DNA of 64,000 bases from an uncultured delta proteobacterium (GCA_963712115.1 CAVQGX010000027.1:64001-128000), one strand, 5' to 3'; counted from the stretch's first letter, positions 244-40,210 are shown. Numbers and translations are program-made. The notes: generated by a model from the letters alone, not told the origin.

Positions 244-2766
<2,523 letters not shown>

Positions 2767-3765: not shown

Positions 3766-4229
3766 GGTAGGTAGATTGCACCCACTCCAGTCGCAGGTGG
3801 TTGGTGAGGCCGATGGAGGTTGTCATGGGTGCTTTGCGTAGTTGGTGAATAAGATGAATGTGATATATAAGCAGAATAAGAAATGCTGTTGAGGTAACGA
3901 ATATTTCGATCACTGGCAGGGATATCATGAGCTGCTATTCTCGCTAATTGATATTTTTCTCCTCTACCTCTTGTCTGGTCTGGGAGATTATTTCCTTGAT
4001 GTGGAGTTTAGCTAAGGATCTGACAGCGACGAGCCGAGTTTCCAAGCATACTAACACAGAATGGCTCATGATATGAAGATCCTAAATTTTCAGAGACCAG
4101 GGAATGGTAACAACTAGGCCGCGGGCTTTTTTGATGATATAGGGCCTTATACTGGAAAGCCGGGAGCAAGGGGAAAAAGCTCACATTTTATGTGGCTTTG
4201 GCTTCGCAATTTTGGAAAAGGGAGCGACT

Positions 4230-4937: not shown

Positions 4938-5058
4938 AGAAGCTGATGCGAAACTATGGTGGCAGGGAGATTAAAGAAAACCGCATCCCCCGGAGGGCTC
5001 ACCGCAATATCGGGGAACAAAGCCCTTATGATACTGATTAGTTATCAAGGAGGAGAGC

Positions 5059-24716: not shown

Positions 24717-25042
24717 CAAGCCCGGATGTTTCATGAATCACCTGCTACGACCGCGGATTCGACCGTCCTTCCAGGTGTCCTCGGGTGTCGGCCCCTGCGA
24801 CGTACCATTCAGGTACGCCTCGGCTTCGATTTCGGATCTCGGATTTCGGATCTCGGATTTTTGACTACAATTGATGATATCGAACTTAACAGTGCAGATA
24901 CCGCCATTTGTTTCCTGCTTCTCACGAGCTTTTCAGCAAATTTTTAATCCGCATTCCGCAATCCGCATTCCGCAATCGTCGACCAGGTGGCACGGTCGTC
25001 TTCGCGGTCTCGCGACAGCAATTCATGAAAGATCCAGGCTAG
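24717..25042. mobile_element. MITE, CTAG-ended family, copy 1
   Basis: TIRs agcccggatgtttcatgaat / attcatgaaagatccaggctag; colinear with 49034-49316; internal TTTCGGA/TCCGCAA heptamer arms; no transposase ORF. Confidence 0.8.
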
Positions 25043-25163
25043 GCCACGGGGAAGCTACTCCACAACGCGAAATTGAATCCCGCTAAAGCAGGATTCGAAA
25101 TGTAAGGAAGATATCTCATCTTATTGTAGTTCGCTCGCAGTCCCCAGTCCCGCATGGCGGAAA

Positions 25164-26060
25164 TCAATAAACCTTCCTTGATCCGTGCCGATTTCCAAGG
25201 ACCTCCACAGTGTTGTTGACCACCACGAAAGCCCCCGGGTCGATGGCAAATATAACATCCTTTAGCTTGGGGAGTTCTGTGAGGGTGGTGATGGTAAAGA
25301 GCACATCTCTTTCTTTCCCGGTGTAAGCCCCCTTTCCCTTTAGGAAAGTAACGCCACGATTTACCTTGTTGAAAATTTCTTTGGCCATCTCACCTGTTTT
25401 TTCCGAGATAACCATGGTGGACAACCGCTGGTTGAATCCAGTGAGGACGGCATCAAGTACCCGGCTGCTGGTGAACACATAGATAAGGGTGTAGAGGGCT
25501 ATTTCCAGTCCAAAAAAATAAGCACCGACCATTAGCACCATAGAGTTAAAAACAAAACTAACCGATCCAGGACGGAAGCCGAATTTCTGGTTTGCATGTA
25601 TTGCCAGAATGTCAATGCCACCTGTTGAGCCGATGGAGCGCAGAATGATTCCAACTCCTGCTCCGCAGATGATGCCGGCAAATAGGGCGGCGAGGATAGG
25701 GTCCTCGATGGCGGCAGCGGGTGGCGTGATAAAAGCGGCGGCCAAGGAAAAAAAGCCCATTCCATAAAGGGTATAGAGGAGAAATCTGCGACTAATGGAG
25801 AAAAATCCCAGGAGCATCAGAGGTATGTTCAGTAAAAAATAGGCAAGCCCTACGTTCAGCTTGGGAAAAAGATAGTGAAATATGAGAGCAATACCTGTAA
25901 CTCCCGCACTCAGCAATTTACTGGGAATCAAAACGGAGTTCATCCCTATGACGAAAATTAGACTTCCGGCAGAGATAAGACAAAGGTTGTAAAGAACTGT
26001 TTTCCAGGACTTGGCGATTAAGTCGAGGTGAAGGTCCTTGGCCTGAAGTTTTATCTCCAT
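25164..26060 (-). CDS. YitT family membrane protein with C-terminal DUF2179 (PII-like) domain
   Basis: AGVTGIA, NIPL, GSTGGIDILA, RGVTFLKGKGAYTG, IDPGAFVVV. Start moved to ATG at 26060 after an AGGAG RBS. Confidence 0.88.
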   Translation of the reverse strand: MEIKLQAKDLHLDLIAKSWKTVLYNLCLISAGSLIFVIGMNSVLIPSKLLSAGVTGIALIFHYLFPKLNVGLAYFLLNIPLMLLGFFSISRRFLLYTLYGMGFFSLAAAFITPPAAAIEDPILAALFAGIICGAGVGIILRSIGSTGGIDILAIHANQKFGFRPGSVSFVFNSMVLMVGAYFFGLEIALYTLIYVFTSSRVLDAVLTGFNQRLSTMVISEKTGEMAKEIFNKVNRGVTFLKGKGAYTGKERDVLFTITTLTELPKLKDVIFAIDPGAFVVVNNTVEVLGNRHGSRKVY

Positions 26061-26173
26061 GGGAGTTCTCCTTGTGTCTGCAGATATTCGGGCTAGCTCC
26101 TGCCATTTGATCTTAGATTCTTTCCCCAGTTTCGGCAAACCATCTTTCAACAAACAAAAAGCTGGCACTCAAA

Positions 26174-26188
26174 GCAGAACTCATGCCA
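26174..26188 (-). promoter_or_regulatory. sigma54 -24/-12 promoter for yitT
   Basis: Minus strand TGGCAT-GAGTT-CTGC with correct GG/GC spacing. Confidence 0.65.
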
Positions 26189-26241
26189 AAAATATAATAT
26201 ATTGAATTCAATGGTAATTTGTCCACTGAATATATAAGTGC

Positions 26242-26486
26242 CAGAACTGTCAGTTCCGATAATCGAAAGAAGGAAGGGTGGGCAATTTAGATGAAGACAG
26301 GGATAATCATCTAAATATCTGAAATGAAATGAAAATAAAAAAAAGAGAATTTCGAGTTCTCATATTTATTTTAACGGAACCCCAAATTCCTCTTTCTAGA
26401 TTATTGTTTGATTACAAATGTTTATGCCCCTCGAGATGTTCTCCTTTGGCTACGATCAGGCCAAATAATCGGAAGCTATGGTTCTG
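26242..26486. promoter_or_regulatory. Cluster of four GAA-N7-TTC palindromic operator/UAS sites shared by divergent yitT and DUF2914 promoters
   Basis: CAGAA-N7-TTCCG 26242, GAGAA-N7-TTCTC 26345, CGGAA-N7-TTCCT 26375, CGGAA-N7-TTCTG 26470. Confidence 0.7.
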
Positions 26487-26538
26487 ATTGCATTCTTTCC
26501 TTTAAATTTTATTAAGTAATATTAAACATTTAATTAGT

Positions 26539-26554
26539 TGGTACGTGGATTGCT
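26539..26554 (+). promoter_or_regulatory. sigma54 -24/-12 promoter for the DUF2914 gene
   Basis: TGGTAC-GTGGA-TTGCT preceded by an AT-rich tract. Confidence 0.75.
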
Positions 26555-26631
26555 GTTGCAAGATCTAATTGGAACAATCCAGGCCGTGGGATGAATACGG
26601 CTACAACCTTAACTAAGAAAGGGAAAGTCAG

Positions 26632-27102
26632 ATGAAAAAGCAAGTTTTAGTTTTTGCCATGGTAGCCGCTGTGCTTATGCTCCTGAGTGGGCAGGTCGCG
26701 GCGCAGACTCAGGCGTCCGCCCCAGCCCAGGAGACTACCCAAGCCCAGGAGGCTACGACAGTTCAGGAACCCTCTAATCTGCAAGTGGAAGTCGCTACTG
26801 TTTCCAAAGATGTAATCGATCGGGCTCCAGTGGAAGCGGGGAGCAGTTTTCCTGCCTCAGTAGGTAAGCTTTTCTGCTTCACCAAAATCACCGGCGCTTT
26901 GAACCCCACTCACGTTACCCACGTGTGGTTTTTTGACGGTACCGAGCGAGCCAGGGTAGAACTTGAGGTCAATTCTGCCAGTTGGCGCACCTACAGCTCA
27001 AAAAATATCGAGAATCACGAGGCGGGCGCCTGGCGTGTCGAGGTAGTTGATTCCGCGGGTAATGTGTTGCAGACCTTGAATTTCGAAGTAACACCCTCAT
27101 AA
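26632..27102 (+). CDS. Exported DUF2914 domain protein
   Basis: Signal peptide, Q/T/A-rich linker, LFCFTKI...HVW...WRTYSSK...GAWRVEV. Confidence 0.8.
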   Translation: MKKQVLVFAMVAAVLMLLSGQVAAQTQASAPAQETTQAQEATTVQEPSNLQVEVATVSKDVIDRAPVEAGSSFPASVGKLFCFTKITGALNPTHVTHVWFFDGTERARVELEVNSASWRTYSSKNIENHEAGAWRVEVVDSAGNVLQTLNFEVTPS

Positions 27103-27196
27103 GCACTGGCCTGCAAAACGTAAAAGAGCTAAGGAGCCGCTCAGGCTAATAAAATAACCGCAGCGTTGAGTCCCTTGGCGAATAATTAGAGGAAAG

Positions 27197-27346
27197 CAGA
27201 ACAAACAATTCCTATGGTCTTAGAATCGGATGCGTGAGTTCTGCTTTCCAAAATTATGTGATAATTTAATTAGTTATTCGGCCTAAAATTTCTTCTTTTG
27301 CACCGGATTCCACTTTTTCTCGCCAAAATCGGAACTTATAGTTCTG
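27197..27346. promoter_or_regulatory. Three GAA-N7-TTC operator/UAS sites upstream of the kamA operon
   Basis: CAGAA-N7-TTCCT 27197, CGGAT-N7-TTCTG 27227, CGGAA-N7-TTCTG 27330. Confidence 0.7.
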
Positions 27347-27399
27347 GCACGTCTGCACTGATCAAAAACAAACATAAAAATATTAATAGGTTATGCAAA

Positions 27400-27414
27400 T
27401 GGCACGTTGTTTGC
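27400..27414 (+). promoter_or_regulatory. sigma54 -24/-12 promoter for the kamA operon
   Basis: TGGCAC-GTTGT-TTGC, consensus match. Confidence 0.85.
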
Positions 27415-27530
27415 CATGGTTGAAAGTCGGCCCCACTAATAGTTTGTGGGTTGAATGGAGCGTTATTTCCTAAAATCCGGCACGATTGATTTTCATTGTG
27501 GCCGTGCCCAGTAAAAGGAGGCGAGGAGAG

Positions 27531-28868
27531 ATGAAAACGGTAATTCCTTGTCCAGAAGAAATTGAACCTTTGGGTTGCCTGCCCAGGTCTGGGCAGGTGG
27601 AGGAGAATTCCTCAAAGGACCAAATATTTGTTGAGTACAGGAAATCCAGGTCCGGCAAGAAGACCTATGGTATTTCAAGATTTCCTGCAAGTTTACGTTC
27701 TTCAACTTTCCGCAGACGTTTCTTTTCTGAAGCGACCAGCGCTGAGTGGAACCATTGGCGCTGGCAGCTGGCTAACCGAATCAGCAATCTTTCCCAACTG
27801 GAGCGCATCATTCGGCTCAGCGACGATGAGCGCCATGGTATTGGCCGCAATGGTAATTCACTTCCTCTGGCCATAACCCCTTACTATGCGAGCCTCCTGG
27901 ACGAAGAAAATCCGTTGCAACCCCTGCGGCGTACCGTGGTGCCGGTAAAAGGGGAGCACCTGCACTCCCAGGGCGAAGCGGAAGATCCCCTGGAAGAAGA
28001 TCATGATAGCCCTGTGCCAGGGATAGTCCACCGCTATCCTGACAGGGTCCTTTTTCTGGTTACGGACTTCTGTTCCACTTACTGCCGTTATTGCACTCGT
28101 TCTCGCATGGTTGGTCACAATAGAGCCTTTAGGCCGGAGCATTGGCAACAGGGCATCGACTACATCAAAGCTACGCCGGCAGTCAGGGATGTGCTGCTAT
28201 CCGGTGGCGACCCGTTGACCCTGCCGGACGAGAAACTTGAATGGCTCCTGTCCCGGCTAAGGAGGATTCCCCATGTGGAACTGTTGCGCATTGGCAGCAA
28301 AGTGCCTGTGGTTTTGCCACAGCGGATTACAGCATCCCTCACCAGGATGCTAAAGCGCTACCACCCACTCTGGATGAGTATTCATTTCACCCACCCAGAT
28401 GAACTTACTCCTGAGTCAAGTCAGGCCTGCGAACGACTGGCGGATGCCGGCATTCCTTTGGGCAGTCAGACTGTGTTGCTGGCCGGAATCAATGATGATG
28501 TGGAAACCATGAAACGATTAGTTCACGGGCTACTGAAGATTCGGGTGAAGCCCTACTACCTCTATCAGTGCGATCCTATTTTGGGATCGGCTCATTTCCG
28601 CACACCTGTTGGCAAGGGCCTTGAGATCATTCAGGGTTTGCGAGGTCACACTAGCGGTTATGCGGTGCCCACTTATGCCATCGACGCCCCGGGAGGCGGT
28701 GGCAAGATTCCCTTGCTTCCCGATTACCTTGTCGGCCGTGAGGGTGATTACCTTGTTCTAAAAAATTATGAGGGCCGGACATTTTACTATCCTGACCCCC
28801 CTCCACCCCAAAGCCACTCCGCCGGCACTCCTTTGAGGCCAGAAGCTGGGGAGAGGAGAAGTTGCTGA
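27531..28868 (+). CDS. kamA: KamA-family radical SAM/PLP aminomutase (lysine 2,3-aminomutase-like)
   Basis: CSTYCRYC, HRYPDR, SGGDPL, YLYQCD, DAPGGGGK (PLP lysine). Start moved to ATG at 27531 after AGGAG. Confidence 0.9.
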   Translation: MKTVIPCPEEIEPLGCLPRSGQVEENSSKDQIFVEYRKSRSGKKTYGISRFPASLRSSTFRRRFFSEATSAEWNHWRWQLANRISNLSQLERIIRLSDDERHGIGRNGNSLPLAITPYYASLLDEENPLQPLRRTVVPVKGEHLHSQGEAEDPLEEDHDSPVPGIVHRYPDRVLFLVTDFCSTYCRYCTRSRMVGHNRAFRPEHWQQGIDYIKATPAVRDVLLSGGDPLTLPDEKLEWLLSRLRRIPHVELLRIGSKVPVVLPQRITASLTRMLKRYHPLWMSIHFTHPDELTPESSQACERLADAGIPLGSQTVLLAGINDDVETMKRLVHGLLKIRVKPYYLYQCDPILGSAHFRTPVGKGLEIIQGLRGHTSGYAVPTYAIDAPGGGGKIPLLPDYLVGREGDYLVLKNYEGRTFYYPDPPPPQSHSAGTPLRPEAGERRSC

Positions 28869-29932
28869 TGAAAATAGGCATTACCTATGACCTCCGAAAA
28901 GATTACCTGGTAGCGGGCTTCGGTGAGGAAGAGACCGCCGAGTTTGACTCGGAGGAAACCATTGCTGCCATTGACCGGGCTTTGCAAGATCTAGGGTACC
29001 GCACAGATCGCATAGGGAACATCAAGAGTCTCACCCGACGACTTGTTGCCGGGGATAGTTGGGATCTGGTTTTCAATATTGCCGAAGGTCTAAGGGGATT
29101 CGGCCGTGAAGCGCAAGTCCCGGCCCTGCTCGAAGCCCACGAAATACCGTATACATTTTCCGATCCCCTGGTACTGTCCCTCACTCTGCACAAAGGGATG
29201 GCCAAGCGCGTTGTCCGAGATTTAACCGTTCCCACGCCTGATTTCTTCCTGGTGGAGAACGAATCTGACCTACAGTTTATCGATCTTCCTTTTCCACTCT
29301 TTGCAAAACCAGTAGCCGAAGGTACCGGCAAGGGAGTCGATTCCGCCTCGAAAATTACCAATCGGAGAGATCTGCTATCCGTGTGCAGTCTCCTGCTGTC
29401 AAGGTACAAACAGCCTGTACTGGTTGAGACCTTTTTGCCAGGACGGGAAGTTACTGTGGGTATCCTGGGAACGGGAAAAGATGCAGCGGTCATTGGTGCT
29501 ATGGAAGTTGTTCTCCTAGAGAATGCTGAATCTGAAGTCTACTCGTACCGGAACAAGGAGAAGTGTGAGGAATTGGTGGAGTATCGTCCGGTCGATGGTG
29601 CTTTGCTAACAGAGGCGAGCAAGGTGGCCCTGCTTGCCTGGAGAGGCCTCGGCTGCCGGGATGCGGGCCGCCTCGATCTGCGTCAAGCTAAGGACGGCAC
29701 TCTCATGTTCATGGAGGTCAATCCCCTGGCCGGACTCCATCCCACCCATTCGGACCTATGCATCATCGCATCTCAGGTGGGAATTTCTTACAACGACTTG
29801 ATCCAGGCGATTGTTTCTTCGGCTTCGGCTCGCCACGGATTGAGGAGGAGAAGCTTTGAGGAGAAAAAAGGTCGGTATAGTTCACAACCAACCAGCCTCC
29901 CAAGGGCACGAAAATTGGGAAGCATCCATTGA
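28868..29932 (+). CDS. D-Ala-D-Ala-ligase-like ATP-grasp enzyme 1
   Basis: FNIAEG, GREAQVPALLE, KPVAEGTGKG, ETFLPGRE, GRLDLR, EVNPLAG; TGATG coupling to kamA. Confidence 0.85.
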   Translation: MKIGITYDLRKDYLVAGFGEEETAEFDSEETIAAIDRALQDLGYRTDRIGNIKSLTRRLVAGDSWDLVFNIAEGLRGFGREAQVPALLEAHEIPYTFSDPLVLSLTLHKGMAKRVVRDLTVPTPDFFLVENESDLQFIDLPFPLFAKPVAEGTGKGVDSASKITNRRDLLSVCSLLLSRYKQPVLVETFLPGREVTVGILGTGKDAAVIGAMEVVLLENAESEVYSYRNKEKCEELVEYRPVDGALLTEASKVALLAWRGLGCRDAGRLDLRQAKDGTLMFMEVNPLAGLHPTHSDLCIIASQVGISYNDLIQAIVSSASARHGLRRRSFEEKKGRYSSQPTSLPRARKLGSIH

Positions 29933-30869
29933 CGTTATTGCCCAGGTGGAAGCCATTGAGAAGGCGCTCGAGGCTTTGGACCACTCGTCGGTGAGGATTC
30001 CCTTTACCCGTGATCTCCATGGCTTCACTCAGAGATTCAAGGAGCAAGTGGTGGACATCGTCTTCAATCTCTGTGAAACTGTTGATGAAGATCCCCACCT
30101 CGTCTGGCATGCAGCAGCCGTCTTTGAGCTCCTGAACGTGCCCTTCACCGGTTCTAATTCCGCAGCCCTGGTGCTTACCACCGACAAGCTTATTGGCAAA
30201 CGACTGCTGAAGGGCAGGCAAATCAGGACGCCCAATTATATAGCCTACAATGGCTCGCGGGAATTCAATACTGCCCTACTCAAATTTCCGGTGATCGTCA
30301 AACCGAGGTTTGAGGACGCAAGTATTGGTATTGATCAGGACTCGATCTTCGAAAATGACCAGGAACTTCGAGAAGGACTGAAACAGTTTTTGGACCGATT
30401 CGGCCCGCTATTGATAGAAGAATACATTCCGGGCAGGGAATTCAACCTAACTCTTTTGGGGTATCCGACGGCAAGTGTACTCCCCATAGGGGAGATCGAT
30501 TTTTCCGCTTTTCCCGAAGATCTTTACCCCATTGTCGGTTACCGGGCCAAATGGGATAAGGCTTCTTTCGAATACCACCATAGTCCCAGAAGGTTTCCAC
30601 AAGATCTAGCCCGGTCGTTGTCAAAAAAAATGGAGAGGGTGGCCCTCGAGTGTTTCCACCTCTTTATGGTGAGAGATTACGGACGAGTTGATCTGAGGGT
30701 TGATGACCAGGGCAAGATATATGTTCTCGAGGTGAACGGGAATCCTTGTCTGAGCCCTGATGCCGGCTTTGCCGCCTCGGCCCGAGAGTCGGGACTGGAC
30801 TATGGGGATATGATAGGCATGATCGTTGATTTTGCCATTCAAAGGGAAGAGGGCAGCACCACCCAGTGA
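29856..30869 (+). CDS. D-Ala-D-Ala-ligase-like ATP-grasp enzyme 2
   Basis: FNLCE, PFTGS, KPRFEDASIGI, EEYIPGRE, YGRVDLR, EVNGNPCL; overlaps the preceding gene. Confidence 0.85.
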   Translation: MRRKKVGIVHNQPASQGHENWEASIDVIAQVEAIEKALEALDHSSVRIPFTRDLHGFTQRFKEQVVDIVFNLCETVDEDPHLVWHAAAVFELLNVPFTGSNSAALVLTTDKLIGKRLLKGRQIRTPNYIAYNGSREFNTALLKFPVIVKPRFEDASIGIDQDSIFENDQELREGLKQFLDRFGPLLIEEYIPGREFNLTLLGYPTASVLPIGEIDFSAFPEDLYPIVGYRAKWDKASFEYHHSPRRFPQDLARSLSKKMERVALECFHLFMVRDYGRVDLRVDDQGKIYVLEVNGNPCLSPDAGFAASARESGLDYGDMIGMIVDFAIQREEGSTTQ

Positions 30870-30908
30870 TGGTAAAGCCTGCGGCCTGTTAACGGGCGAA
30901 AGGGAAAA

Positions 30909-32693
30909 ATGTTTCGAATTCGTCGAATCTACGATGACACCTTGCCCGTGGATAAAGATGCCATTGTGCAGGTTCAGCAAATCTTGCTGGAGCAGTTTCC
31001 ATTATTGTGGAAGGAAAAAATCACCGAACTTACAGAGCAACTGCGGAACCCACTGAAATACCGGTTCAGGTCTATTCTTCTCGTTGCCGAAGGCGCACGG
31101 AATCGAGTCAAAGGCTTTGCTCTCCTTCAACACGCCCCAGACCTACAATTTTGCTATTTGGACTTCATGGCAGCAGGGCGGTGGCAGACGGGAGGTGGAG
31201 TCGGTGGCGGCCTCTATGAAAGGGTAAGGGAAGAAGCCTTCTCCATGAAGGCTGTTGGCCTTTTCTTCGAGTGTTTGCCCGATGACCAAACATTGTGTCG
31301 CGACCCGGAGATATTGAAACAAAATGTTGCCAGGCTCCGCTTCTATGAAAAATACGGAGCGCGGCCCATAGTGAACACGGCGTACGAGACACCACTCGGC
31401 CAGGACGATGACTGCCCACCCTATCTGGTCTGCGACAATCTCGGCAGAGACAAAACGTTGCGCCGCTACAAAATGAAAAGCATTGCGCAGGCCATACTCA
31501 GAAGAAAATACGGCGACTTGTGCCCTCCAAAATATATAAAGATGGTGGTAGAGTCCTTCAAAGACGACCCGGTCCGACTCAGAGGTCCCAGGTACGTAAA
31601 AGATGAACCTCCCATCGAGGTAAGGCCTGTCAGGTCCATTGAAAAGAGCATCGCCCTGGTTGTGAATGACAAGCACACCATTCACCACGTTCATAACCGA
31701 GGGTATGTGGAATCACCCGTGCGGATAAGGGCTATTCTAAGGGAAATTGAGCCAACTGGAATTTTTGAGAAGATAAAAGTTCGGCACTTTTCTGACAAAT
31801 ACATCAAAGCCGTTCATGACGGCCAGTTTGTGGAGTACCTGAAACGAGTGTGCAACCACCTTGAACCGGGAAAATCAGTATACCCTTATGTATTTCCCAT
31901 TCGAAATGTTGCTCGGCCCCCCAAGGTTTTACCGATCAGAGCGGGTTACTACTGCATCGACACCTTCACCCCACTGAACGAGAATGCTTACCTTGCGGCC
32001 AAAAGGTCAGTTGACTGCGCCTTGACCGCGGCCCAAAAGATCCTCGAAGGGTATCGCCTAGCCTATGCTTTGGTGCGCCCTCCCGGGCACCACGCCGAGC
32101 ACCGCGCCTTCGGTGGATTCTGCTACTTCAATTCTGCCGCGATTGCAGCTCAGTACTTGAGCTCTTACGGAAAAGTGGCAATGCTGGATCTGGATTACCA
32201 CCACGGAAATGGGGCCCAGAACATTTTCTACAAACGCGCAGATGTATTGACCATATCGATCCACGGCCATCCACGTTTTGCCTACCCCTATTTCAGCGGC
32301 TTTGAAGATGAAAAAGGAGAGTCCGCCGGGTTCGGATACAATATGAATGTCCCCTTGCCGGAAGAAGTGAGCGGGGAAGCATACAGGGAAGCCCTTAAGA
32401 AGGTGCTGAAGCGGATAGAGAAGTTCCAACCTCAATTTCTCGTGGTTCCCCTGGGTTATGATCCCGCCAAAGAGGATCCCACCGGTTCGTGGGGTTTGCG
32501 TGCCAGGGATTTCAGGCTTAATGGAGAAATGGTCGGCTCCCTGAGGTTACCCACGATTGTCGTTCAGGAGGGAGGCTACAGAGTTCGCTCCCTGGGGATC
32601 AATTCCCGTAATTTCTTTACCGGCTTGTGGTCAGGTTTCCATCTTCGTAGCCCTTCAACCGTAAGCTCACACCAGAGAAGTAAGCGCAAGTGA
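30909..32693 (+). CDS. GNAT-like N-terminal domain fused to a histone-deacetylase / acetylpolyamine-amidohydrolase domain
   Basis: N-terminal YLDFMAAGRWQTGGGVGGGLY...RLRFYEKYG (GNAT-like); C-terminal RPPGHHA, GGFCYFN, DLDYHHGNG, QEGGY. Confidence 0.88.
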   Translation: MFRIRRIYDDTLPVDKDAIVQVQQILLEQFPLLWKEKITELTEQLRNPLKYRFRSILLVAEGARNRVKGFALLQHAPDLQFCYLDFMAAGRWQTGGGVGGGLYERVREEAFSMKAVGLFFECLPDDQTLCRDPEILKQNVARLRFYEKYGARPIVNTAYETPLGQDDDCPPYLVCDNLGRDKTLRRYKMKSIAQAILRRKYGDLCPPKYIKMVVESFKDDPVRLRGPRYVKDEPPIEVRPVRSIEKSIALVVNDKHTIHHVHNRGYVESPVRIRAILREIEPTGIFEKIKVRHFSDKYIKAVHDGQFVEYLKRVCNHLEPGKSVYPYVFPIRNVARPPKVLPIRAGYYCIDTFTPLNENAYLAAKRSVDCALTAAQKILEGYRLAYALVRPPGHHAEHRAFGGFCYFNSAAIAAQYLSSYGKVAMLDLDYHHGNGAQNIFYKRADVLTISIHGHPRFAYPYFSGFEDEKGESAGFGYNMNVPLPEEVSGEAYREALKKVLKRIEKFQPQFLVVPLGYDPAKEDPTGSWGLRARDFRLNGEMVGSLRLPTIVVQEGGYRVRSLGINSRNFFTGLWSGFHLRSPSTVSSHQRSKRK

Positions 32694-33178
32694 ACTTCAA
32701 AGGAATCTCTTATCGAGACAAGCCAATCCCCTCCGATGTTGACAGTATCCTGAACATTGTCAAGTCTTCCGGATTTTTTTCTACGGAAGAAGTTGAAATG
32801 GCAGTGGAGTTGGTGCAAGAAAACCTTTCTAAAGGAGAGTCGAGCGGCTATTGTTTTTTATTGGTTGAATTCAATGAGCGAGTTGTTGGTTACAGTTGCT
32901 ATGGACCGATTCCGTGCACCAAAGAAAGTTACGACCTTTACTGGATTGCCGTCCTCCATGACTTTAGAAGCAGGGGAATTGGCCGGGACTTGTTGGAAAG
33001 GACCGAGAAGAAAATAGGGAAAATGGGGGGTAGACGAATCTACGTGGATACCTCTTCCCGTGATCAGTACGAACCAACACGCTCATTCTACCGGGCTAAC
33101 GGCTACGAGCAGGAAGGTGTTCTGAAGGATTTTTACTCTCCTGGGGATGATAAAATTATATACGTCAAACAATTATAG
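32690..33178 (+). CDS. GNAT N-acetyltransferase
   Basis: LYWIAV..DFRSRGIG, TRSFY; GTGA overlap with the upstream gene. Confidence 0.88.
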   Translation: MNFKGISYRDKPIPSDVDSILNIVKSSGFFSTEEVEMAVELVQENLSKGESSGYCFLLVEFNERVVGYSCYGPIPCTKESYDLYWIAVLHDFRSRGIGRDLLERTEKKIGKMGGRRIYVDTSSRDQYEPTRSFYRANGYEQEGVLKDFYSPGDDKIIYVKQL

Positions 33179-33271
33179 TGGGAAGGCAATGGTTTAAACC
33201 CCAGGAACTTCCCTAAAAAAACCGTTGCAGGCCAGAAAAATTCGATGGAATTCCCTGGCCGAGCTATTGTG

Positions 33272-33538
33272 CTACAGTTCAGAATCCACTTCATCTTCGA
33301 AAACCTCCCTGATAGTGAATTTGCTTTTATTAAGCTTATCTATTAACAACTCGTACATTCCAAAAAACTGCTCTAGGGTCTTTAAAAGGTTTGGCCCGAT
33401 TTTTTCAAAACAATTGGGACACCTCAACTCAAGGTTATCGTTAATTTTTTCAATGAATTCAGAAGTGTTAACCGTGAATGTTGAGCCGCATTCATGGCCG
33501 AGAATAAACCATCTAGTCCCCTCTTTCTCTGTTTTCAT
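33272..33538 (-). CDS. Small hypothetical protein, possible zinc ribbon
   Basis: 88 aa with HECG and CPNC; AAGGA RBS. Confidence 0.55.
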   Translation of the reverse strand: MKTEKEGTRWFILGHECGSTFTVNTSEFIEKINDNLELRCPNCFEKIGPNLLKTLEQFFGMYELLIDKLNKSKFTIREVFEDEVDSEL

Positions 33539-33586
33539 TTGGAATTTCCTTTAATCTCATAAGTTAGAGCCAAACACTCAGACATG

Positions 33587-33615
33587 GAAAAACGGGCTTT
33601 CTTAGCCCGTTTTTC
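33587..33615. terminator. Hairpin, terminator-like
   Basis: gaaaaacgggct-N5-agcccgtttttc perfect stem with A/T tails. Confidence 0.5.
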
Positions 33616-33880
33616 CCCGTCCCGATTCAGGGAAAAAATATTTTGGCCTGAGGTTGCAAAGGAACAAATATTATCTTATAAGCGATTCAAAGCAAGCGGA
33701 AAGATTAGAAGGGCATTATAAGTTCTCATGGTGTGCATTACGGAACCTGAATTGGTGTTTGTTTTGACTGAACAAATTTCCACCCTTGATTTTCACTTTT
33801 GCAATATAATTGCCGGTCGGACGAGTTAGTTTAACAGGGAAATCTCCAAGGGTAGACAAAATGGGTCCCGGGAGGGGCGA

Positions 33881-35290
33881 ATGAAATTTGTTCTGGTTGT
33901 TGCCAGGGAACAAGACATTGTCCAGACCATAATGGGGTGTTTTGGCTCTGACTGCAAGGTGAACCGGGCAGCGGACAGAGATGATGCTTTGGAGATGCTG
34001 GGAACGAGGCGCTATGATCTTATCTTTCTTGATCTGGAGATAGTTCAGGGCTCATTAGGGGACAAGGACTATGAAACCGCCTTGCAACAGTTCCGCAATT
34101 TGCAGCCTTCTGTCGAGATTGTTGTGATGTCGCCGCAAGCAATGGTCAGGGAGGCGGTAAAGGCGGTTAAGGCGGGTGCGAGCGACTATATTACTTATCC
34201 TATCGATCCTGAGGAGGTTAACCATGTAACGGAGACCATCAATGAGGCCATAATCCTCCAGTCTGAACTGGACTATTTGAGAGACCGGTTTTGGCAATCG
34301 GATTACATGGACTTGGTCAAGACCAAGAGTCCGGCGATGCAAGAAGTCTTCTCAAGTATCCGCTCTGTAGCTCCAACCAAAAGTACCGTTTTGCTCATCG
34401 GCGAAACGGGTACGGGCAAAGGTCTTATAGCAAGACTCATTCATCAGCACAGTAACCGCCGAGATGCTCAATTTATCAGTGTCCACTGTGGCGCCATTCC
34501 AGACACGCTGGTGGAAAGCGAGTTGTTCGGCCATGAAAAAGGTGCTTTCACCGGCGCAATTCGGAAAAAGCTGGGGAAGTTTGAAATTGCCAAAGGGGGG
34601 ACTATTTTTTTAGATGAAATTGGCACCATAACACCTTCCGCTCAGATAAAGCTCTTACAGGTTTTACAGGACGGAACTTTTCAAAGGGTTGGAGGAGAGG
34701 ATACTATACAAGCCAATGTCAGAGTGATCGCCGCCACAAACATGGATCTCGGAATGATGTGCGACGATGGCCAATTCAGAAAAGATCTTTACTACCGGTT
34801 AAATGTGTTTCCAGTGGAAATCCCGCCCCTGAGGGAGAGAAAAGAGGATATTCCACATATTGCTCAGTTAATCCTGCAAAGATTAGAGAAGTTCAATAAA
34901 AGACAGATCCGATCTATAAATAGCAGCGTGATGGAAGGCTTCATGAAGTACGCCTGGCCAGGAAATGTCCGAGAACTGGAAAACTTGTTAGAGCGTGCCT
35001 ATATTCTGGAAAACTCCTCAGTGCTTACAGTAGAAAGTTTTCCGGCTGAACTTCTTCCATCTCAAGACGTTTCGGCAGGGGTGGAGGTGGATTCTTCCCT
35101 TCCCTTGGCTGAGGTTAGAAATAGAGGGGTTGAGGATATTGAGCGGCGATACCTGCGAGAACTTCTCGCCAGCAAACGAGGAAGAATAAAGGAGTCGGCT
35201 GAGGTCGCCGGCATCAGTACCCGGCAGCTGCACAAGCTGCTCAACAAATACCAAATTAGAAAAGAGGAATTCAAGCAGCGAAATAGTTAA
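33881..35290 (+). CDS. sigma54-dependent activator (NtrC family: atypical receiver, AAA+, Fis-type HTH)
   Basis: GETGTGK, ESELFGHEKGAFTGA, FLDEIG, WPGNVREL, C-terminal HTH. Confidence 0.92.
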   Translation: MKFVLVVAREQDIVQTIMGCFGSDCKVNRAADRDDALEMLGTRRYDLIFLDLEIVQGSLGDKDYETALQQFRNLQPSVEIVVMSPQAMVREAVKAVKAGASDYITYPIDPEEVNHVTETINEAIILQSELDYLRDRFWQSDYMDLVKTKSPAMQEVFSSIRSVAPTKSTVLLIGETGTGKGLIARLIHQHSNRRDAQFISVHCGAIPDTLVESELFGHEKGAFTGAIRKKLGKFEIAKGGTIFLDEIGTITPSAQIKLLQVLQDGTFQRVGGEDTIQANVRVIAATNMDLGMMCDDGQFRKDLYYRLNVFPVEIPPLRERKEDIPHIAQLILQRLEKFNKRQIRSINSSVMEGFMKYAWPGNVRELENLLERAYILENSSVLTVESFPAELLPSQDVSAGVEVDSSLPLAEVRNRGVEDIERRYLRELLASKRGRIKESAEVAGISTRQLHKLLNKYQIRKEEFKQRNS

Positions 35291-35292
35291 AG

Positions 35293-35443
35293 CGGAAATG
35301 GTAGTTCCGACAAGGGAAAATTCGGTCCTGGCAGTTCTTCTTTAAGAATTAAATATATATTTCAAGGGATTGCGCGTAGGATTAAAAGCTAATTCATACC
35401 AGACCCATCCTCTCCCAGGCAGTGATCGGAAGCCGGAGTTCCG
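35293..35443. promoter_or_regulatory. Three GAA-N7-TTC operator/UAS sites
   Basis: CGGAA-N7-TTCCG 35293, CGGTC-N7-TTCTT 35323, gatCGGAA-N7-TTCCGatc 35427. Confidence 0.72.
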
Positions 35444-35497
35444 ATCGCCAGACTCACATCTCTCGTTAAATCCATAAATTACAATAGCTTATCTAAA

Positions 35498-35512
35498 TGG
35501 CACGTCTGTTGC
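35498..35512 (+). promoter_or_regulatory. sigma54 -24/-12 promoter for the small-protein genes
   Basis: TGGCAC-GTCTG-TTGC, consensus match. Confidence 0.85.
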
Positions 35513-35580
35513 CTACGCTTTGACTGGACCAAGGGATGAGCCGGGTACTCAAGTCTGGCTGCAATCGTTAGAGAGGACCA

Positions 35581-35838
35581 ATGGAAAATAAAGATGCAAG
35601 CAGTCTTAAGACTGTAAGAGGACTCGTCATTCCGGTGGACTGGGACGATAAGGGCAATGTCACTGCCACGGCCATTTCGACTCACCTGGAAGAAGAGTAC
35701 CTAGTAGACCAAGACGCTTGGGGTGAGGCGTTGCTGGCTTTCCTCCGCCAGAGGGTGAAAGTAAGCGGATCTGTAGTGCTAAAGAAAGATGGCAAAAAGG
35801 TCATTACAGTGAAGAAATATGAAGTGTTGGAAGAGTGA
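35581..35838 (+). CDS. Small beta-rich hypothetical protein (cytoplasmic paralogue)
   Basis: GAGGA RBS; aligns by eye with 35921-36247. Confidence 0.75.
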   Translation: MENKDASSLKTVRGLVIPVDWDDKGNVTATAISTHLEEEYLVDQDAWGEALLAFLRQRVKVSGSVVLKKDGKKVITVKKYEVLEE

Positions 35839-35920
35839 TCAATAAAGAAGTTTAATCTAAGAAGGTGCGGGAATTGTCCCGTTTTCTGTAGTGCGAACAA
35901 GAATTGAATAGGGAGGAAGA

Positions 35921-36247
35921 ATGATGTTGCTGCGAAAAAAAATTCTGCTGCCTGTCCTGAGTATTTTGGCGATTGTCGCCCTGATGGGCGCCGTACAGCT
36001 GTTTGCGGCCGCAGAAGAAGTAGAGATTGCTGGAACCGTCTTTGCCGCTGAGTGGGACGCCAACGACAATGTCACGGCTGTTGTCATTGCAACCGAGGAG
36101 GGGGAAGAAATCGCTGTATCCACCTCGGGCAAGGGCATTGAACTCCTGAAGCTCGAAGAGAGAAATGTAAAAGCGACCGGTTCGATTGTCACGGATGAGG
36201 AAGGTCGGAAAACGATCACCATAACTAAATACATCGTCCAGGAATAG
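35921..36247 (+). CDS. Small beta-rich hypothetical protein (exported paralogue)
   Basis: GGAGG RBS, signal peptide, WD..NVTA..I.T..EE..V...G..LL....VK..GS.V....G.K.IT..KY shared with the upstream gene. Confidence 0.8.
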   Translation: MMLLRKKILLPVLSILAIVALMGAVQLFAAAEEVEIAGTVFAAEWDANDNVTAVVIATEEGEEIAVSTSGKGIELLKLEERNVKATGSIVTDEEGRKTITITKYIVQE

Positions 36248-36372
36248 AGCCGGAAAGCTCTTCGTCAGTTTAGAGAAGGGGAGCCCGTGTCAGCGGTCTT
36301 TTAGAAATGTGAGGGGGGGAGGCCCCCTCACTTGCTTAGTCCAGAGCCGGGAAGCTTCCCTAGGAGTTCACC

Positions 36373-36591
36373 ATGCAAGAGAAAAGATTAATCTGCACTC
36401 AGTGCGGCAACCCGTTTATCTTTACCATTCCCGAACAGCAACGTCTCAACTCCCTCGGGTTTGATGCCCCGAAGCGGTGTGGGGAATGTCGGAAAAAGAA
36501 GATTAAAGACGGCCCGTCACGGCATGAGACAAAAATGAAGTACAAACGCCAGAAATCTAAAAACCACTCGGAGGACGTTTTCGACCATTAG
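36373..36591 (+). CDS. Zinc-ribbon protein (CxxC-x..-PKRCxxC type)
   Basis: LICTQCGNPFIFT..EQ.......GF.APKRCGECR; AGGAG RBS. Confidence 0.8.
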   Translation: MQEKRLICTQCGNPFIFTIPEQQRLNSLGFDAPKRCGECRKKKIKDGPSRHETKMKYKRQKSKNHSEDVFDH

Positions 36592-36692
36592 TCATAGTTG
36601 GTAGAAGTTCAGAGCTGACAGGTGGTGCGTATTTGCCCTCCTTTTATCGGAAAAGCAATCCTTCAACCTTAATCGAGATTAGAGGTTTTTGT

Positions 36693-36721
36693 TTGACATC
36701 TCTTTGTCATTTTGCTAGCTC
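36693..36721 (+). promoter_or_regulatory. Putative sigma70 promoter for mgtE
   Basis: TTGACA, 17 bp spacer, TG-n-TAGCTC. Confidence 0.4.
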
Positions 36722-36856
36722 ATTTAAGGACACAACAAAGGGGTGCGGCACTCTGGAATATGGAATCAAATTTATCTAAAGACCCGCACAGTAGCAAAAG
36801 GGACAAAGGAGGCAGCAGTTTGAATTGCCTCGCTACCTGCGGACAGGGCAAAGGCA

Positions 36857-38218
36857 ATGACCGAGAGAGGATACCAATTGCTTCAGGACACGGTAGAGAG
36901 GCTGTTGCGCCGAAATGCCACTTACCACCTGACCAATATCCTCAAAAAGACCCACCCTGCTGATATAGCCTACCTTTTCAAACTTCTGGACGACCGTTCA
37001 GCCCACACCGTTTTCAAGCTCTTACCCGATGTGGACACCGCCGCTGATGTCTTGTCGGAGATACACCCGTCTTTCCGGAGCAAATTCATTCAAACTCTGT
37101 CCACCGACCGTCTGGTGGAGATCCTTTCTGCCATGGCGGATGACGATGCAGCAGACCTACTCGCCGGTCTCCCAGATGAGGTACGTGAGAAAATCCTTGG
37201 GCTCATGTCGCACAAAGACACAGAAGAGCTCTCTGAGCTATTGAGATACCCGGAGGATTCGGCCGGCCGCATTATGACCACTGATTTTCTAGCCCTGCCA
37301 GAGAACATGAGCGCCCAAGAGGCGGTGCAAGAAGTGCGCAAGGCGTCGGCAACCGAGATGGTCTTCTACCTCTACGTGGTTGATGAGCAACGGCGTCTTT
37401 CAGGCGTGCTCTCTTTGCGCCAGCTGGTAACTGCCACTGATGAGACCAAGCTTTCCCGTATAATGACATCAGAGGTGGTCAAAGTGCATGTCACTACTGA
37501 CCAGGAGGAAGCAGCGCGAAAGGTTTCACGTTACAACCTCCTGGCGGTACCTGTTGTAGGTGACAACGATATTCTTGTTGGGATTATAACTGTAGATGAC
37601 GTTATCGATGTTTTGCGCGAGGAAGCCACCGAGGACATTTTGAAAATGGCCGGCACCTCAGAGGAAGAGATCAGTTCTTTCTCAGTGTGGCGCAGTGTAA
37701 GGGTACGCCTGCCCTGGCTTTTCGCAGCCTGGATCGGAGGCGTTGCTGCTATCAAGATAATAGAGGGCTTTGAAGGCCAGTTCAGCGAACAGATCACCTT
37801 GTTCGCCTCCCTGGCGGCTTTCATTCCGGTTATCATGGGAATGGGGGGCAACATAGGTACCCAAAGCCTATCAATCACCGTCCGTGGGCTGGCTACTGGA
37901 AGGATTGATCCCAAATTGCTGTGGAGGGTAGTTTTTAAAGAGATCAGGGTGGGGCTGCTCCTTGGGATTGCTTATGGCTTCCTACTTGCTCTCGTGGGCT
38001 GGTTTTTGAACAAGAGCCTAATCTTGGGTGTGGCGGTGGGTGTGGCCATGTGTGGTAATATGACCCTGGCGGCGGTGGTCGGCACTTTCTTACCCCTAAT
38101 AGCCACAAAGCTTCGCATAGATCCGGCGGTGGCCTCGGGTCCCTTCGTGACTACCAGTATAGACGTCCTCGGCGTCACCCTCTTTTTCCTCACCGCTGCC
38201 CTGCTCATCCTCAACTGA
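36857..38218 (+). CDS. mgtE: Magnesium transporter MgtE
   Basis: MgtE_N (HPADIA), YPEDSAGRIMT, CBS pair, RLPWL, MGGNIGTQ, DPAVASGPFVTTSID. Confidence 0.95.
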   Translation: MTERGYQLLQDTVERLLRRNATYHLTNILKKTHPADIAYLFKLLDDRSAHTVFKLLPDVDTAADVLSEIHPSFRSKFIQTLSTDRLVEILSAMADDDAADLLAGLPDEVREKILGLMSHKDTEELSELLRYPEDSAGRIMTTDFLALPENMSAQEAVQEVRKASATEMVFYLYVVDEQRRLSGVLSLRQLVTATDETKLSRIMTSEVVKVHVTTDQEEAARKVSRYNLLAVPVVGDNDILVGIITVDDVIDVLREEATEDILKMAGTSEEEISSFSVWRSVRVRLPWLFAAWIGGVAAIKIIEGFEGQFSEQITLFASLAAFIPVIMGMGGNIGTQSLSITVRGLATGRIDPKLLWRVVFKEIRVGLLLGIAYGFLLALVGWFLNKSLILGVAVGVAMCGNMTLAAVVGTFLPLIATKLRIDPAVASGPFVTTSIDVLGVTLFFLTAALLILN

Positions 38219-38246
38219 GTTGCCCGGCACTGCTTGGCGTGTGACC

Positions 38247-38470
38247 TTTCGCAGTCACTCAGAAGAGACATCAGCATAGGCCAAAAGGGAATGCTGCGAA
38301 ACAACGAGCATCTGAGCAACCTGTCTTTGCCAATCTCAGCCTTGAGAGGGCCTGCATGAAGATGTGGTGCTTCCTCAACAGGAACTCTGCCAATAAATGG
38401 CGCGAATATGATCGTTGTGGAGTAGCTTTCCTGTGGCCTATGTCAGAAAAATATTCTTGGGGAAACTCCT
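38247..38470. repeat. ~225-bp dispersed repeat, copy 2
   Basis: Direct-orientation copy of 10342-10566. Confidence 0.85.
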
Positions 38471-38490
38471 GAAAAAAGGTAGAAAAATTT

Positions 38491-38700
38491 ATGAAGCTCC
38501 TTTGTCCTAACAATTGTCCACCTGCTATAGACAGTAATATTGGATTTCGCTTGGTAGGTGTACCAGTCAATTTGAGAGATGATTTAACCATAGATATTGA
38601 AGGAATACATAGTTCCATAATTAATATCCTTAAGGGGCTAATACCGGGTGCCAAATTATTATGTGGCAGGTGCAACGAAAAAGCAGTGATGGAAAAGTAA
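38491..38700 (+). CDS. Small hypothetical protein with CPxxC...CxxC
   Basis: 69-aa ORF, CPNNC and CGRC; AT-rich. Confidence 0.45.
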   Translation: MKLLCPNNCPPAIDSNIGFRLVGVPVNLRDDLTIDIEGIHSSIINILKGLIPGAKLLCGRCNEKAVMEK

Positions 38701-38944
38701 TATTATCTCACCAAATTTTCTATCTTCCCGGCCAATATCAAAGGTGAGCTTTTGCCTCGACTGCGGTTGTGGTTGCGCTGGACATTGGTCCTGAAGTGTA
38801 CTAAAAAAATTTTTTGGCTCGGAAAGAGTGAGGGGTTGTTTCTGAGTTAAGGAGAGAGGGCAGTCACGGGAAGCCCCATAGCGTTCCGAAGGATTACTAA
38901 AGATTGAACAGATGAAACTCTTGGGGGCAAAAGGTGAGATTAGG

Positions 38945-39307
38945 ATGAAGAGGCTAGTTTTTGTTATACTACTGGTATTCTTCTTTTCAGCAAATGCATA
39001 TGGCAATAATTGCGCGAGATTAACCAACCGTGAATTCTATGTTGAGTCGTTGTCTAACTCTTGCCAGGTTGTCTGGGGTGCCGAAATACTCAACATTTGT
39101 GATAGACCCATTGAGCTGGAATTAGAAGGCGCCTTGGTTAATAAGAAAGGCTACGTACTGCACAAGGACAGGTCGCGGAAGATTTTTCTGGAACCTGGAG
39201 AAACCGCAAAGGTACATCGAAGATTTGCCACTAGTTGTCGCTTATTACTCGAGGTCAAAGCGCTTAACTATTCCACCATCGTCGTAAAACATAGCAAAGG
39301 CAGATAG
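38945..39307 (+). CDS. Hypothetical exported protein
   Basis: MKRLVFVILLVFFFSANAYG signal peptide, Ig-like LEPGET motif, four Cys. Confidence 0.65.
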   Translation: MKRLVFVILLVFFFSANAYGNNCARLTNREFYVESLSNSCQVVWGAEILNICDRPIELELEGALVNKKGYVLHKDRSRKIFLEPGETAKVHRRFATSCRLLLEVKALNYSTIVVKHSKGR

Positions 39308-39363
39308 GTAAGAGTTAGTGAGTTATATTATTCATTCGAATCAAGGCAGCCTGATCCTTTTGG

Positions 39364-39676
39364 CCAGGTAGGAGTTCAATGGTTTGCCAGTAAAGGAGAC
39401 GAGCGGTTTTGGAGTACCATAGGAATAGAAATTCCAAATCACAAATCACAGATATCAAACAAATCACAATGACCAAAATTCGAAATTCCAAACCTGTTTT
39501 GTGTTTTGGTCATTGAATATTGGAATTTGAGATTTATTTGTAATTTGGTGCTTGGAGTTTGGGATTTCACTTTTTCACCACTCCATTACTCCAGCAGACG
39601 TGCGTATAAAGGAAAGACCCTAAAAGCCCCCCTGGGGGGCAGCTCAAAGCCAGTTTTTTTGGGCCAGGACTCTTTA
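39364..39676. mobile_element. MITE-like element with a heptamer palindrome nested inside octamer arms
   Basis: Colinear with 51561-51854; ends gggccaggactcttta. Confidence 0.8.
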
Positions 39677-39709
39677 TTAATCTAAACTAATCACTTGAAG
39701 GAGGAAGCT

Positions 39710-40120
39710 ATGTTAAGAAAATCCACTTACAAACTGCGCGTTACCAGAAGAGAGGCCCTTTGCGTTCATGACGAGCCAGACCATACTTTGATGCTGGTGG
39801 AAATGGAGGGAGAGCCCATAGATTATACACCAGGAGTGGCCGGAGAATTCCTCTCCCGCCGCAGTGTCAATTTCCATGACCGTACCAAGGGATCAGGGTC
39901 GATGCAGGGCTATGCCATGACCCACTTCCAATACGGCTCGGTGTACAGCCGCTTCGAAGGCCAAAGGGATGGGAAGAGCAAAACCACTAAGGGCACCTGG
40001 AAAACCTACAGGGGAACAGGCAAACTGGCCACCATCACAGGGGAGGGTACCTTCACCGTAAGTAGCGGACAAGCTCCAGGTGAATTCATCCTAGCGATGG
40101 AGGGTGAGTACGAACTTTAG
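39710..40120 (+). CDS. Hypothetical beta-barrel-like protein
   Basis: AGGAGG RBS; GTW...GTGKL..ITGEG pattern; followed by hairpin ggagcacg...cgtgctcc. Confidence 0.75.
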   Translation: MLRKSTYKLRVTRREALCVHDEPDHTLMLVEMEGEPIDYTPGVAGEFLSRRSVNFHDRTKGSGSMQGYAMTHFQYGSVYSRFEGQRDGKSKTTKGTWKTYRGTGKLATITGEGTFTVSSGQAPGEFILAMEGEYEL

Positions 40121-40210
40121 CCGCGTCTGTTTCTGAAGAGGAAAGGAGCACGACGAAGGTTTTCGCCGTGCTCCGGCCGCGGATTAGTTTGGGCTCTGTT
40201 AGGTAACGGA

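Follow-up and report, generated by a model that had tools for sequence, protein, structure and literature searches.

The described systems closest to the one reported here are NtrC at glnAp2, PspF, and the FleQ/FlrA-type regulators. NtrC consists of a receiver, an AAA+ domain and a Fis-type helix-turn-helix (HTH) domain; at glnAp2 it binds tandem 17-bp dyads about three helical turns apart, upstream of the -24/-12 promoter, and the bound dimers oligomerise into an active ring. PspF has no N-terminal domain and is restrained by PspA, and an integration host factor (IHF) site lies between its close-in upstream activating sequence (UAS) and the promoter. In FleQ/FlrA-type regulators a receiver-like domain is not phosphorylated, the targets are flagellar and biofilm genes, and the response is to c-di-GMP or FleN. 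The present analysis concerns a stretch of 64,000 nt (the window; CAVQGX010000027.1:64001-128000) from the 4.9-Mb genome of an uncultured delta proteobacterium (G000), in which four sigma-54 promoters with a common dyad motif accompany the gene of a sigma-54 activator at 33881..35290 (+ strand). On comparative grounds it is quite probable that these promoters belong to a lineage-specific sigma-54 regulon under the adjacent activator.

The architecture is of the textbook kind (NtrC, PspF, NifA-type enhancers with IHF). The domain order of the activator and the tandem 17-bp dyads upstream of the -24/-12 elements recall NtrC, whereas the half-site is CGGAA here and TGCACC in NtrC, a third, proximal dyad is added at a fixed 69-71 bp from the TGG together with two IHF-consensus boxes, neither the acidic pair nor the conserved Lys is present in the receiver, no NtrB-like kinase gene lies nearby, and the cargo appears to concern stress and solutes, not nitrogen. 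The psp system is resembled in that the activator adjoins its main target, an IHF-type site lies between UAS and promoter, the candidate regulon is small with one outlying promoter, and the theme is stress or envelope; the differences are the degenerate receiver and the first target, a predicted OB-fold instead of a PspA-type coiled coil, for which a predicted complex with the activator gave no support. An N-terminal receiver-like fold with an incomplete phosphorylation pocket is shared with FleQ/FlrA, and FleQ chains were among the PDB matches of the activator, but nothing like the flagellar and biofilm targets or the c-di-GMP/FleN input of those regulators was seen here. Some features are unusual, namely the grammar of three dyads and two boxes, the enhancers shared by divergent promoters, and the degenerate receiver. 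Literature searches returned no paper describing this activator, dyad or regulon.

Promoters, dyads and IHF-type boxes

The window was scanned for sigma-54 promoters with the strict pattern TGGYAY-N5-YTGCH and for dyads with the pattern CGGAA-N7-TTCCG, mismatches being counted out of the 10 specified bases. The strict promoter scan gave six matches, four of which are the promoters at 26188(-), 26539, 27400 and 35498: promoter 1 (yitT; 26173..26188, - strand, TGGCATGAGTTCTGCT), promoter 2 (DUF2914; 26539..26554, + strand, TGGTACGTGGATTGCT), promoter 3 (kamA operon; 27400..27415, + strand, TGGCACGTTGTTTGCC) and promoter 4 (small85; 35498..35513, + strand, TGGCACGTCTGTTGCC). At these four sites and at C38:14046 on another contig of the genome, the GG and GC elements are 10 nt apart and the sequence follows TGGCAC-N5-TTGCW, the yitT site having CTGC as its -12 element. 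Of the 48 dyads in the window with at most two mismatches, 2 are exact, 8 have one mismatch and 38 have two; the three intergenic regions that carry the promoters contain both of the exact and four of the one-mismatch sites. The remaining two strict promoter matches, at 8953 (TGGTACCTCAATTGCT) and 47316 (TGGTATGATGTCTGCT), are without dyads and presumably belong to other activators or to chance.

Each promoter has one proximal dyad and a distal pair. At promoter 1 the proximal dyad (26242..26258, one mismatch, CAGAACTGTCAGTTCCG on the + strand) starts 70 bp upstream of the TGG, and at promoter 2 (26470..26486, one mismatch, CGGAAGCTATGGTTCTG) 69 bp upstream; these divergent promoters have one distal pair in common, consisting of a weak site at 26345-26361 (GAGAA-N7-TTCTC, four mismatches) and a site at 26375-26391 (CGGAACCCCAAATTCCT, one mismatch), 30 bp apart. 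Promoter 3 has its proximal dyad at 27330..27346 (one mismatch, CGGAACTTATAGTTCTG, start 70 bp upstream) and its distal pair, likewise 30 bp apart, at 27197-27213 and 27227-27243 (two mismatches each). At promoter 4 an exact proximal dyad (35427..35443, CGGAAGCCGGAGTTCCG) starts 71 bp upstream, and the distal pair, which begins 3 nt past the stop codon of the activator gene, combines an exact site (35293-35309) with a conserved deviant one (35323-35339, CGGTCCTGGCAGTTCTT, four mismatches); the left half of the latter, CGGTCC, is also seen in the C38 copy and at the small85 promoters of orthologous loci. From the proximal dyad to the nearer distal site the distance is 103, 95, 103 and 104 bp at promoters 1 to 4, and within each pair the spacing is exactly 30 bp. 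The four promoter boxes and these proximal, distal and pair distances had been given in a first-pass annotation and were reproduced. Counted from the TGG, the distal dyads start about 173 and 203 bp upstream, or 164 and 194 bp at the DUF2914 promoter. A distal pair shared by divergent promoters also occurs in the relatives G002 and G007, and the same design is seen, for instance, between DUF418 and a Rho_N operon and between small85b and a tandem Usp gene.

A 13-nt box resembling the IHF consensus WATCAANNNNTTR ends exactly 6 nt before the TGG at each promoter. The boxes lie at 26195..26207 (- strand, ATTCAATATATTA) for promoter 1, 26520..26532 (+ strand, TATTAAACATTTA) for promoter 2, 27381..27393 (+ strand, TATTAATAGGTTA) for promoter 3 and 35479..35491 (+ strand, TTACAATAGCTTA) for promoter 4, with 1, 1, 1 and 2 mismatches to the consensus, respectively; the C38 box has none. 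Boxes with at most one mismatch were present at 24 of 33 regulon promoters, compared with 1 of 223 other sigma-54-like matches in G000. Most promoters have a second IHF-like box in the interval that separates the proximal dyad from the distal pair, about 138-126 nt upstream of the TGG; in the window it is located at 26312..26324 (- strand, TTTCAGATATTTA, two mismatches), 26412..26424 (+ strand, TTACAAATGTTTA, two mismatches), 27264..27276 (+ strand, ATTTAATTAGTTA, two mismatches) and 35360..35372 (+ strand, TTTCAAGGGATTG, one mismatch) for promoters 1 to 4. The AT-rich, IHF-like tracts that had been noticed between proximal site and promoter are real and sharper than described. The genome contains nine matches to the HU/IHF family as a whole.

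The promoter at C38:14046(-) turned up independently of the four listed earlier. Its proximal dyad lies 70 bp upstream; of its distal sites one is exact, and the other, 30 bp closer to the promoter, is a CGGTCCTGGGAGTTCCT site corresponding to the deviant one at 35323. It drives a gene for a 95-aa secreted paralogue of the small proteins. A dyad with no more than one mismatch starts 69-71 bp upstream of five of the 228 strict sigma-54-like matches in the genome, where about 0.02 would be expected. A composite pattern, GAA-N7-TTCYR-N50-57-TGGYAY-N6-TGC, matched four times in G000 and not once in any of 12 simulated genomes (third-order Markov). The bare dyad behaves differently: five exact copies were counted against 4.5 expected, together with 159 one-mismatch copies, the corresponding counts for a control palindrome of equal composition being 7 and 280. 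Regulon promoters account for three of the exact copies, and open frames of 843 and 467 aa contain the other two. Only the composite architecture is specific, the bare 10-base motif being at background. Background frequency genome-wide had been named beforehand as an outcome that would speak against a regulon; taken literally it is what was found, yet it is uninformative for a motif of 10 bases, and the composite is highly non-random.

In pairwise comparisons of the five G000 promoters, identity was 0.90 in the half-sites, 0.88 in the -24/-12 elements and 0.78 in the IHF box, and 0.33-0.41 in the N7 spacers, the linkers and the other unspecified positions; with the boxes so alike and the spacers so unlike, the resemblance of the promoters points to constraint on the boxes and not to recent copying. 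A TGG-anchored alignment of 33 promoters (5 from G000, 26 from relatives and 2 from public contigs) yielded the extended proximal consensus tATCGGAAct...AGTTCCGAT; of the 33 proximal dyads 12 are exact, 18 have a single mismatch and 3 have two, and their N7 spacers vary. These data bear on the notion that the promoters look alike through past copying of promoter cassettes, or by chance, with no common regulation today. The background frequency of the bare motif would fit it, as would some 5'-untranslated sequence shared by the small85 and C38 promoters, but conservation confined to the boxes, the failure of the composite to appear in simulated genomes, and half-sites kept across varying spacers in loci whose activators are 56-91% identical make it barely conceivable.

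Some further observations concern the same promoters. The small85 and C38 transcripts would have in common a TTGACTGGACCAA stretch just past the promoter (window 35517-35531; C38 5'-untranslated region), which is kept only in part in relatives. Upstream of the C38 enhancer there are degenerate heptamer runs (AATCCGC / AATCCCA / AATCTAC; L001, about 5270-5400); similar runs occur in relatives (G004:C53, G007:C62), and CCGCAATCCGC-type words at window positions 24956 and 49230. A loose genome scan (GG-N10-GC score of at least 8, dyad with at most two mismatches) gave 33 matches without a peak in the distances, and distal dyads were present only at the five named promoters. One candidate, C46:23795(-), has two-mismatch dyads at 64 and 173 bp, neither of which keeps the GAA-N7-TTC core, and was treated as chance.

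The activator and its co-occurrence with the enhancer

G000 and 30 relatives (31 genomes) were compared. Orthologues of the activator, with 63-91% identity and E values of at most 1e-169, were found in 14 of the 31 genomes; the next-best matches are about 48% identical. Each of these 14 contains 2-7 composite matches; of the 17 genomes that have no orthologue, 14 contain none and three a single one, and a reversed-pattern control gave none in the genus. Of the three lone matches, that in G015, 127 bp from a contig end, looks genuine, and those in G003 and G023 look like chance. Homologues of small85 are distributed alike, with representatives in all 14 orthologue-bearing genomes and one weak match (G015) in the other 17. 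Among 122 genomes of the class, multiple composite matches are confined to two genera (g1 and g2), except for one genome with two unrelated-looking matches. Seven larger orthologous loci (activator 63-91% identical) contain 26 promoters with proximal and distal dyads, a further match being dropped as chance for want of distal dyads, and three loci with an activator about 47-48% identical contain no dyad-bearing promoters.

The scan was extended to public genome contigs, with 80 loci encoding activator relatives (871 kb in total). A dyad triplet directly after the activator stop was found only in L025 and L026, whose activators are 60% and 56% identical to that of the window. The full composite layout was matched only in L025, from a metagenome-assembled genome (MAG) of an uncultured bacterium; L026, from a MAG labelled Calditrichaeota, was found by reading, since its TTGA in place of TTGC at -12 escapes the scan. 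Both promoters drive a small85 homologue. Six other matches of the public scan are without distal dyads.

In the genomes compared, the enhancer layout is thus found only where the neighbouring activator gene is present, save for single matches. Conservation at orthologous promoters, one of the checks proposed with the first-pass annotation, was borne out, as half-sites are kept and spacers vary over 56-91% activator identity. Co-regulation of the targets by the adjacent activator, the central claim of that annotation, gains strong comparative backing (14 of 14 genomes as against the other 17, and 2 of 80 public loci). Another activator, or a repressor, might in principle bind the dyads, the adjacent activator being a mere neighbour: the genome has 47 matches to the activator family, which makes another activator formally possible, and the link from activator to dyad is drawn from sequence. 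This is very improbable, however, given that the dyads start 3 nt past the stop codon of this very activator, accompany its orthologues in unrelated contigs down to an identity of 56% while being absent beside 78 paralogues, and have the same phyletic pattern over the 31 genomes, and that the HTH residues are conserved among the orthologues.

The activator is assigned by Pfam and alignments a degenerate receiver, an AAA+ domain with GAFTGA loop and an HTH_8 domain (Pfam: Response_reg; Sigma54_activat PF00158, E=4.3e-68; AAA lid; HTH_8, E=5.6e-5). Walker A (GETGTGKG) and the GAFTGA loop are visible in the alignments. In nine aligned orthologues the receiver residue Asp51, which lines up with the acceptor Asp of solved receivers, is invariant; the acidic pair DD is replaced by AR here and by SK, AK, SE or TN in the orthologues, and the conserved Lys before Pro by Tyr or Cys. 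No kinase gene was found by Pfam among the 16 neighbouring proteins (19.6-38.2 kb) or in the loci of relatives that were scanned. With a receiver that lacks the acidic pair and the Lys and with no kinase gene nearby, control is likely not by ordinary phosphotransfer. For sigma-54 itself the genome has two Sigma54_DBD matches over the cut-off (rpoN; C17:13955-14431 and C58:2538-3014), which may be true paralogues or reflect contamination of the bin, estimated at 6%. Structure prediction of a complex between receiver residues 1-135 and small85 scored 0.00 against a mark of 0.32, which speaks neither for nor against binding.

Under the regulon reading, dimers of the activator would bind the ATCGGAAC-N5-GTTCCGAT dyads and thereby switch on the four window promoters and the C38 promoter. 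IHF-type bends at two fixed places would fold the DNA and join the three bound dimers, which would make up one AAA+ hexamer on the closed sigma-54 complex, and ATP hydrolysis would open the promoter. The input would arrive by a route other than ordinary phosphotransfer. The output in this organism would consist of YitT, the secreted DUF2914 protein, cytoplasmic and secreted small OB-fold proteins, and the kamA operon. The enhancer grammar of the locus is clean and testable, being made up of the dyad sequence, three fixed positions, two boxes of IHF type and sharing in both directions, and the fixed three-dimer layout would make a convenient system in which to study the building of AAA+ hexamers from DNA-bound dimers.

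Genes of the candidate regulon in the window and in relatives

Promoter 1 is followed by the gene of a yitT-family membrane protein (25164..26062, - strand; Pfam YitT_membrane and DUF2179; ATG at 26062, AAGGAG ribosome-binding site), and promoter 2 by that of a DUF2914 protein with an N-terminal signal peptide (26632..27102, + strand; Pfam and translation). Promoter 3 precedes the five-gene kamA operon (27531..33178, + strand; Pfam and NCBIfam), comprising an AblA-like lysine 2,3-aminomutase (kamA, 27531-28868), two Ddl-like ATP-grasp ligases (28862-29932 and 29856-30869), a 594-aa protein with a C-terminal Hist_deacetyl domain (30909-32693) and a GNAT acetyltransferase (32690-33178), all on the + strand. 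Promoter 4 precedes small85 (35581..35838, + strand), an 85-aa cytoplasmic protein with a predicted OB-fold that is the conserved first target adjoining the activator, and its signal-peptide-bearing paralogue small108 (35921..36247, + strand). The gene of a zf_Tbcl treble-clef zinc protein (36373..36591, + strand), which follows the small genes in relatives too, is possibly co-transcribed with them. The localisations given earlier, with YitT in the membrane and signal peptides on DUF2914 and the 108-aa paralogue, were correct.

The small proteins are predicted OB-folds. An AlphaFold2 model of small85 (mean predicted local distance difference test score, pLDDT, 88.9) is a five-stranded barrel with a helix between strands 3 and 4, and Foldseek matched it to LysRS N-domains, PriB, SSB and RPA with template modelling (TM) scores of 0.5-0.6. 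Neither small85 nor small108 had a match in Pfam or NCBIfam; DUF5818 (Pfam) matched the C38 paralogue only, with 23.1 bits, under its cut-off of 27. In a protein atlas the small85 clusters are annotated as hypothetical proteins and occur most often in Thermodesulfobacteriota. An acidic pair, EE or DD, forms the C-terminus of most small85 proteins. A role of small85 as a carrier protein is speculation.

In relatives the same enhancer stands before groES-groEL-hsp20(-PALP), single and tandem Usp genes, DUF418, GlgE, PALP plus DUF1611, a small Rho_N-like gene that lies ahead of two unknown genes and HtrA, operons with DksA/TraR and zf_Tbcl proteins among their products, and an 88-aa Cys-rich open reading frame (ORF) followed by a fusion of S30AE (hibernation factor) and cold-shock domains (HPF/CSD). 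In the window the 88-aa ORF lies at 33272..33538 on the - strand; it is conserved in relatives and is likely the real gene, not the 109-aa frame on the + strand. A regulon-type promoter precedes it in G002, where the S30AE/cold-shock fusion comes next; in G000 and G007 the proximal dyad, the IHF box and the -24/-12 elements of this promoter are deleted, and the stretch 33539-33880 ahead of the activator has kept no more than relics of a distal pair, near 33700-33760. GroES/GroEL, small heat-shock and Usp genes behind predicted sigma-54 promoters are described for Bacteroidota and Planctomycetota in PMC12316311. The same gene classes stand behind sigma-54 promoters in relatives of this genus, outside the phyla for which the available passages of that report give the prediction; those passages contain no activator, dyad motif or enhancer layout.

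The kamA operon is, by its distribution, an accessory member of the candidate regulon. No orthologue of the window kamA was found in the five regulon-bearing genomes searched (G002, G008, G009, G010 and G018), the best matches being paralogues of 39-42% identity, and kamA-type promoters lie near the activator in G005, G007, G016 and G017. In L025 (an unrelated MAG contig; positions 1962-5248) the activator-adjacent promoter leads into small85, a kamA 70% identical to that of the window and two Ddl-like ATP-grasp genes, all in one operon. In G017 (L021, G017:C48; 1795-5784 vs 8443-9849) the proteins of the kamA operon are 86-97% identical to those of the window and the activator 65%, which suggests that the operon was transferred or recombined within the genus. 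Of the deacetylase gene in G017 only the last 60 or so codons are left.

AblA and AblB constitute the N-epsilon-acetyl-beta-lysine pathway. The kamA product is nearest to the AblA model (TIGR03820, 501.9 bits, compared with 437 for glutamate 2,3-aminomutase), and a GNAT gene is part of the same operon. It differs from the pathway in that the AblA score is below the cut-off of 525.4, in that no AblB-type NCBIfam model matched the GNAT protein, which is recognised by rimI-like and general GNAT models only, and in the additional two Ddl-like ligases and deacetylase-domain protein. The AblA-like, ATP-grasp, deacetylase and GNAT proteins together may make a protective solute.

These distributions bear on the first-pass proposal of one system with membrane and periplasmic parts. 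Spelled out as a dedicated machine, it would have the kamA operon make a beta-lysine-derived product, YitT transport this product through the membrane, and DUF2914 together with the secreted OB-fold proteins handle it outside. The enhancer common to all of the genes, the membrane location of YitT, the signal peptides on DUF2914 and small108, the linkage of activator, small85 and kamA/ATP-grasp genes in the distant contig L025, and the kamA-type promoters near the activator in four relatives are what such a machine would lead one to expect. It fits poorly with the failure to find a kamA orthologue in the five genomes, with PALP-DUF1611 in place of yitT at the divergent promoter of G002, G010 and G016, and with chaperonins, Usp, HPF/CSD and GlgE behind the same enhancer in relatives. 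As the cargo varies between species and the enhancer is constant, a single membrane and periplasmic system is less likely, and this part of the proposal was not upheld; the machine as a whole appears improbable. A wider combination is about equally doubtful: three dyads and two bends would template exactly one hexamer, shareable by divergent promoters; the activator would be independent of phosphorylation and sense proteotoxic or osmotic stress directly or via a partner; and an ancient core cargo (small OB-fold protein, AblA-like aminomutase, two ATP-grasp ligases) would make an undescribed protectant derived from a beta-amino acid, with the OB-fold protein as carrier or feedback element.

A variable, stress-protective regulon is the somewhat favoured description, the label resting on family names and on the genes that relatives have behind the enhancer. 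No function is assigned to the activator family or to most of its targets, and under this description DUF2914, DUF418, the small OB-fold family and zf_Tbcl would probably act in stress in sediment bacteria rich in sigma-54 activators.

Several points, besides the many activator-family genes of the genome, weigh against a stress-protective regulon under the adjacent activator or against parts of it. Two of the ten window dyads, the weak distal sites at 26345 and 35323, keep only six of the 10 specified bases (four mismatches of 10). The 95 bp between proximal and distal dyads at the DUF2914 promoter, compared with 103 bp elsewhere, is about 0.8 helical turn off, which a single rigid geometry fails to account for. 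The IHF-like box is unusually near the -24 element and could be the site of another binder. With Asp51 invariant, the receiver may after all be phosphorylated. The sub-cut-off AblA score and the lack of a matching AblB-type model weaken any assignment of a product to the kamA operon. The stress label is drawn from family names in relatives, and in G000 itself, where the set is smaller, the homologues of groESL, Usp and HtrA are without the enhancer. Finally, binding, bending, hexamer assembly and the signal are all inferred.

Other observations on the locus

Rfam gave no family at gathering score in the window, L015 or L001. Scans for sigma-70 promoters and terminators were at the level of shuffled sequence and were not used. 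RNA-library contigs from four metatranscriptome runs (three studies) cover 29, 15, 29 and 27 of the 30 bins of window positions 25000-37000 at low depth; starts, strands and levels are not readable from them, DNA was possibly present, and nothing is claimed. The runs in which half or more of the sampled words occur carry labels of marine-sediment or estuary metagenomes, which is no more than a hint of habitat. Homologues of p121-p141-HtrA follow mgtE at window positions 38945-41275, without the DUF418 gene and without a regulon promoter, none having been found in G000 in the spacer between mgtE and p121-p141-htrA (38219-38911). A 69-aa Cys-rich ORF lies at 38491-38700.

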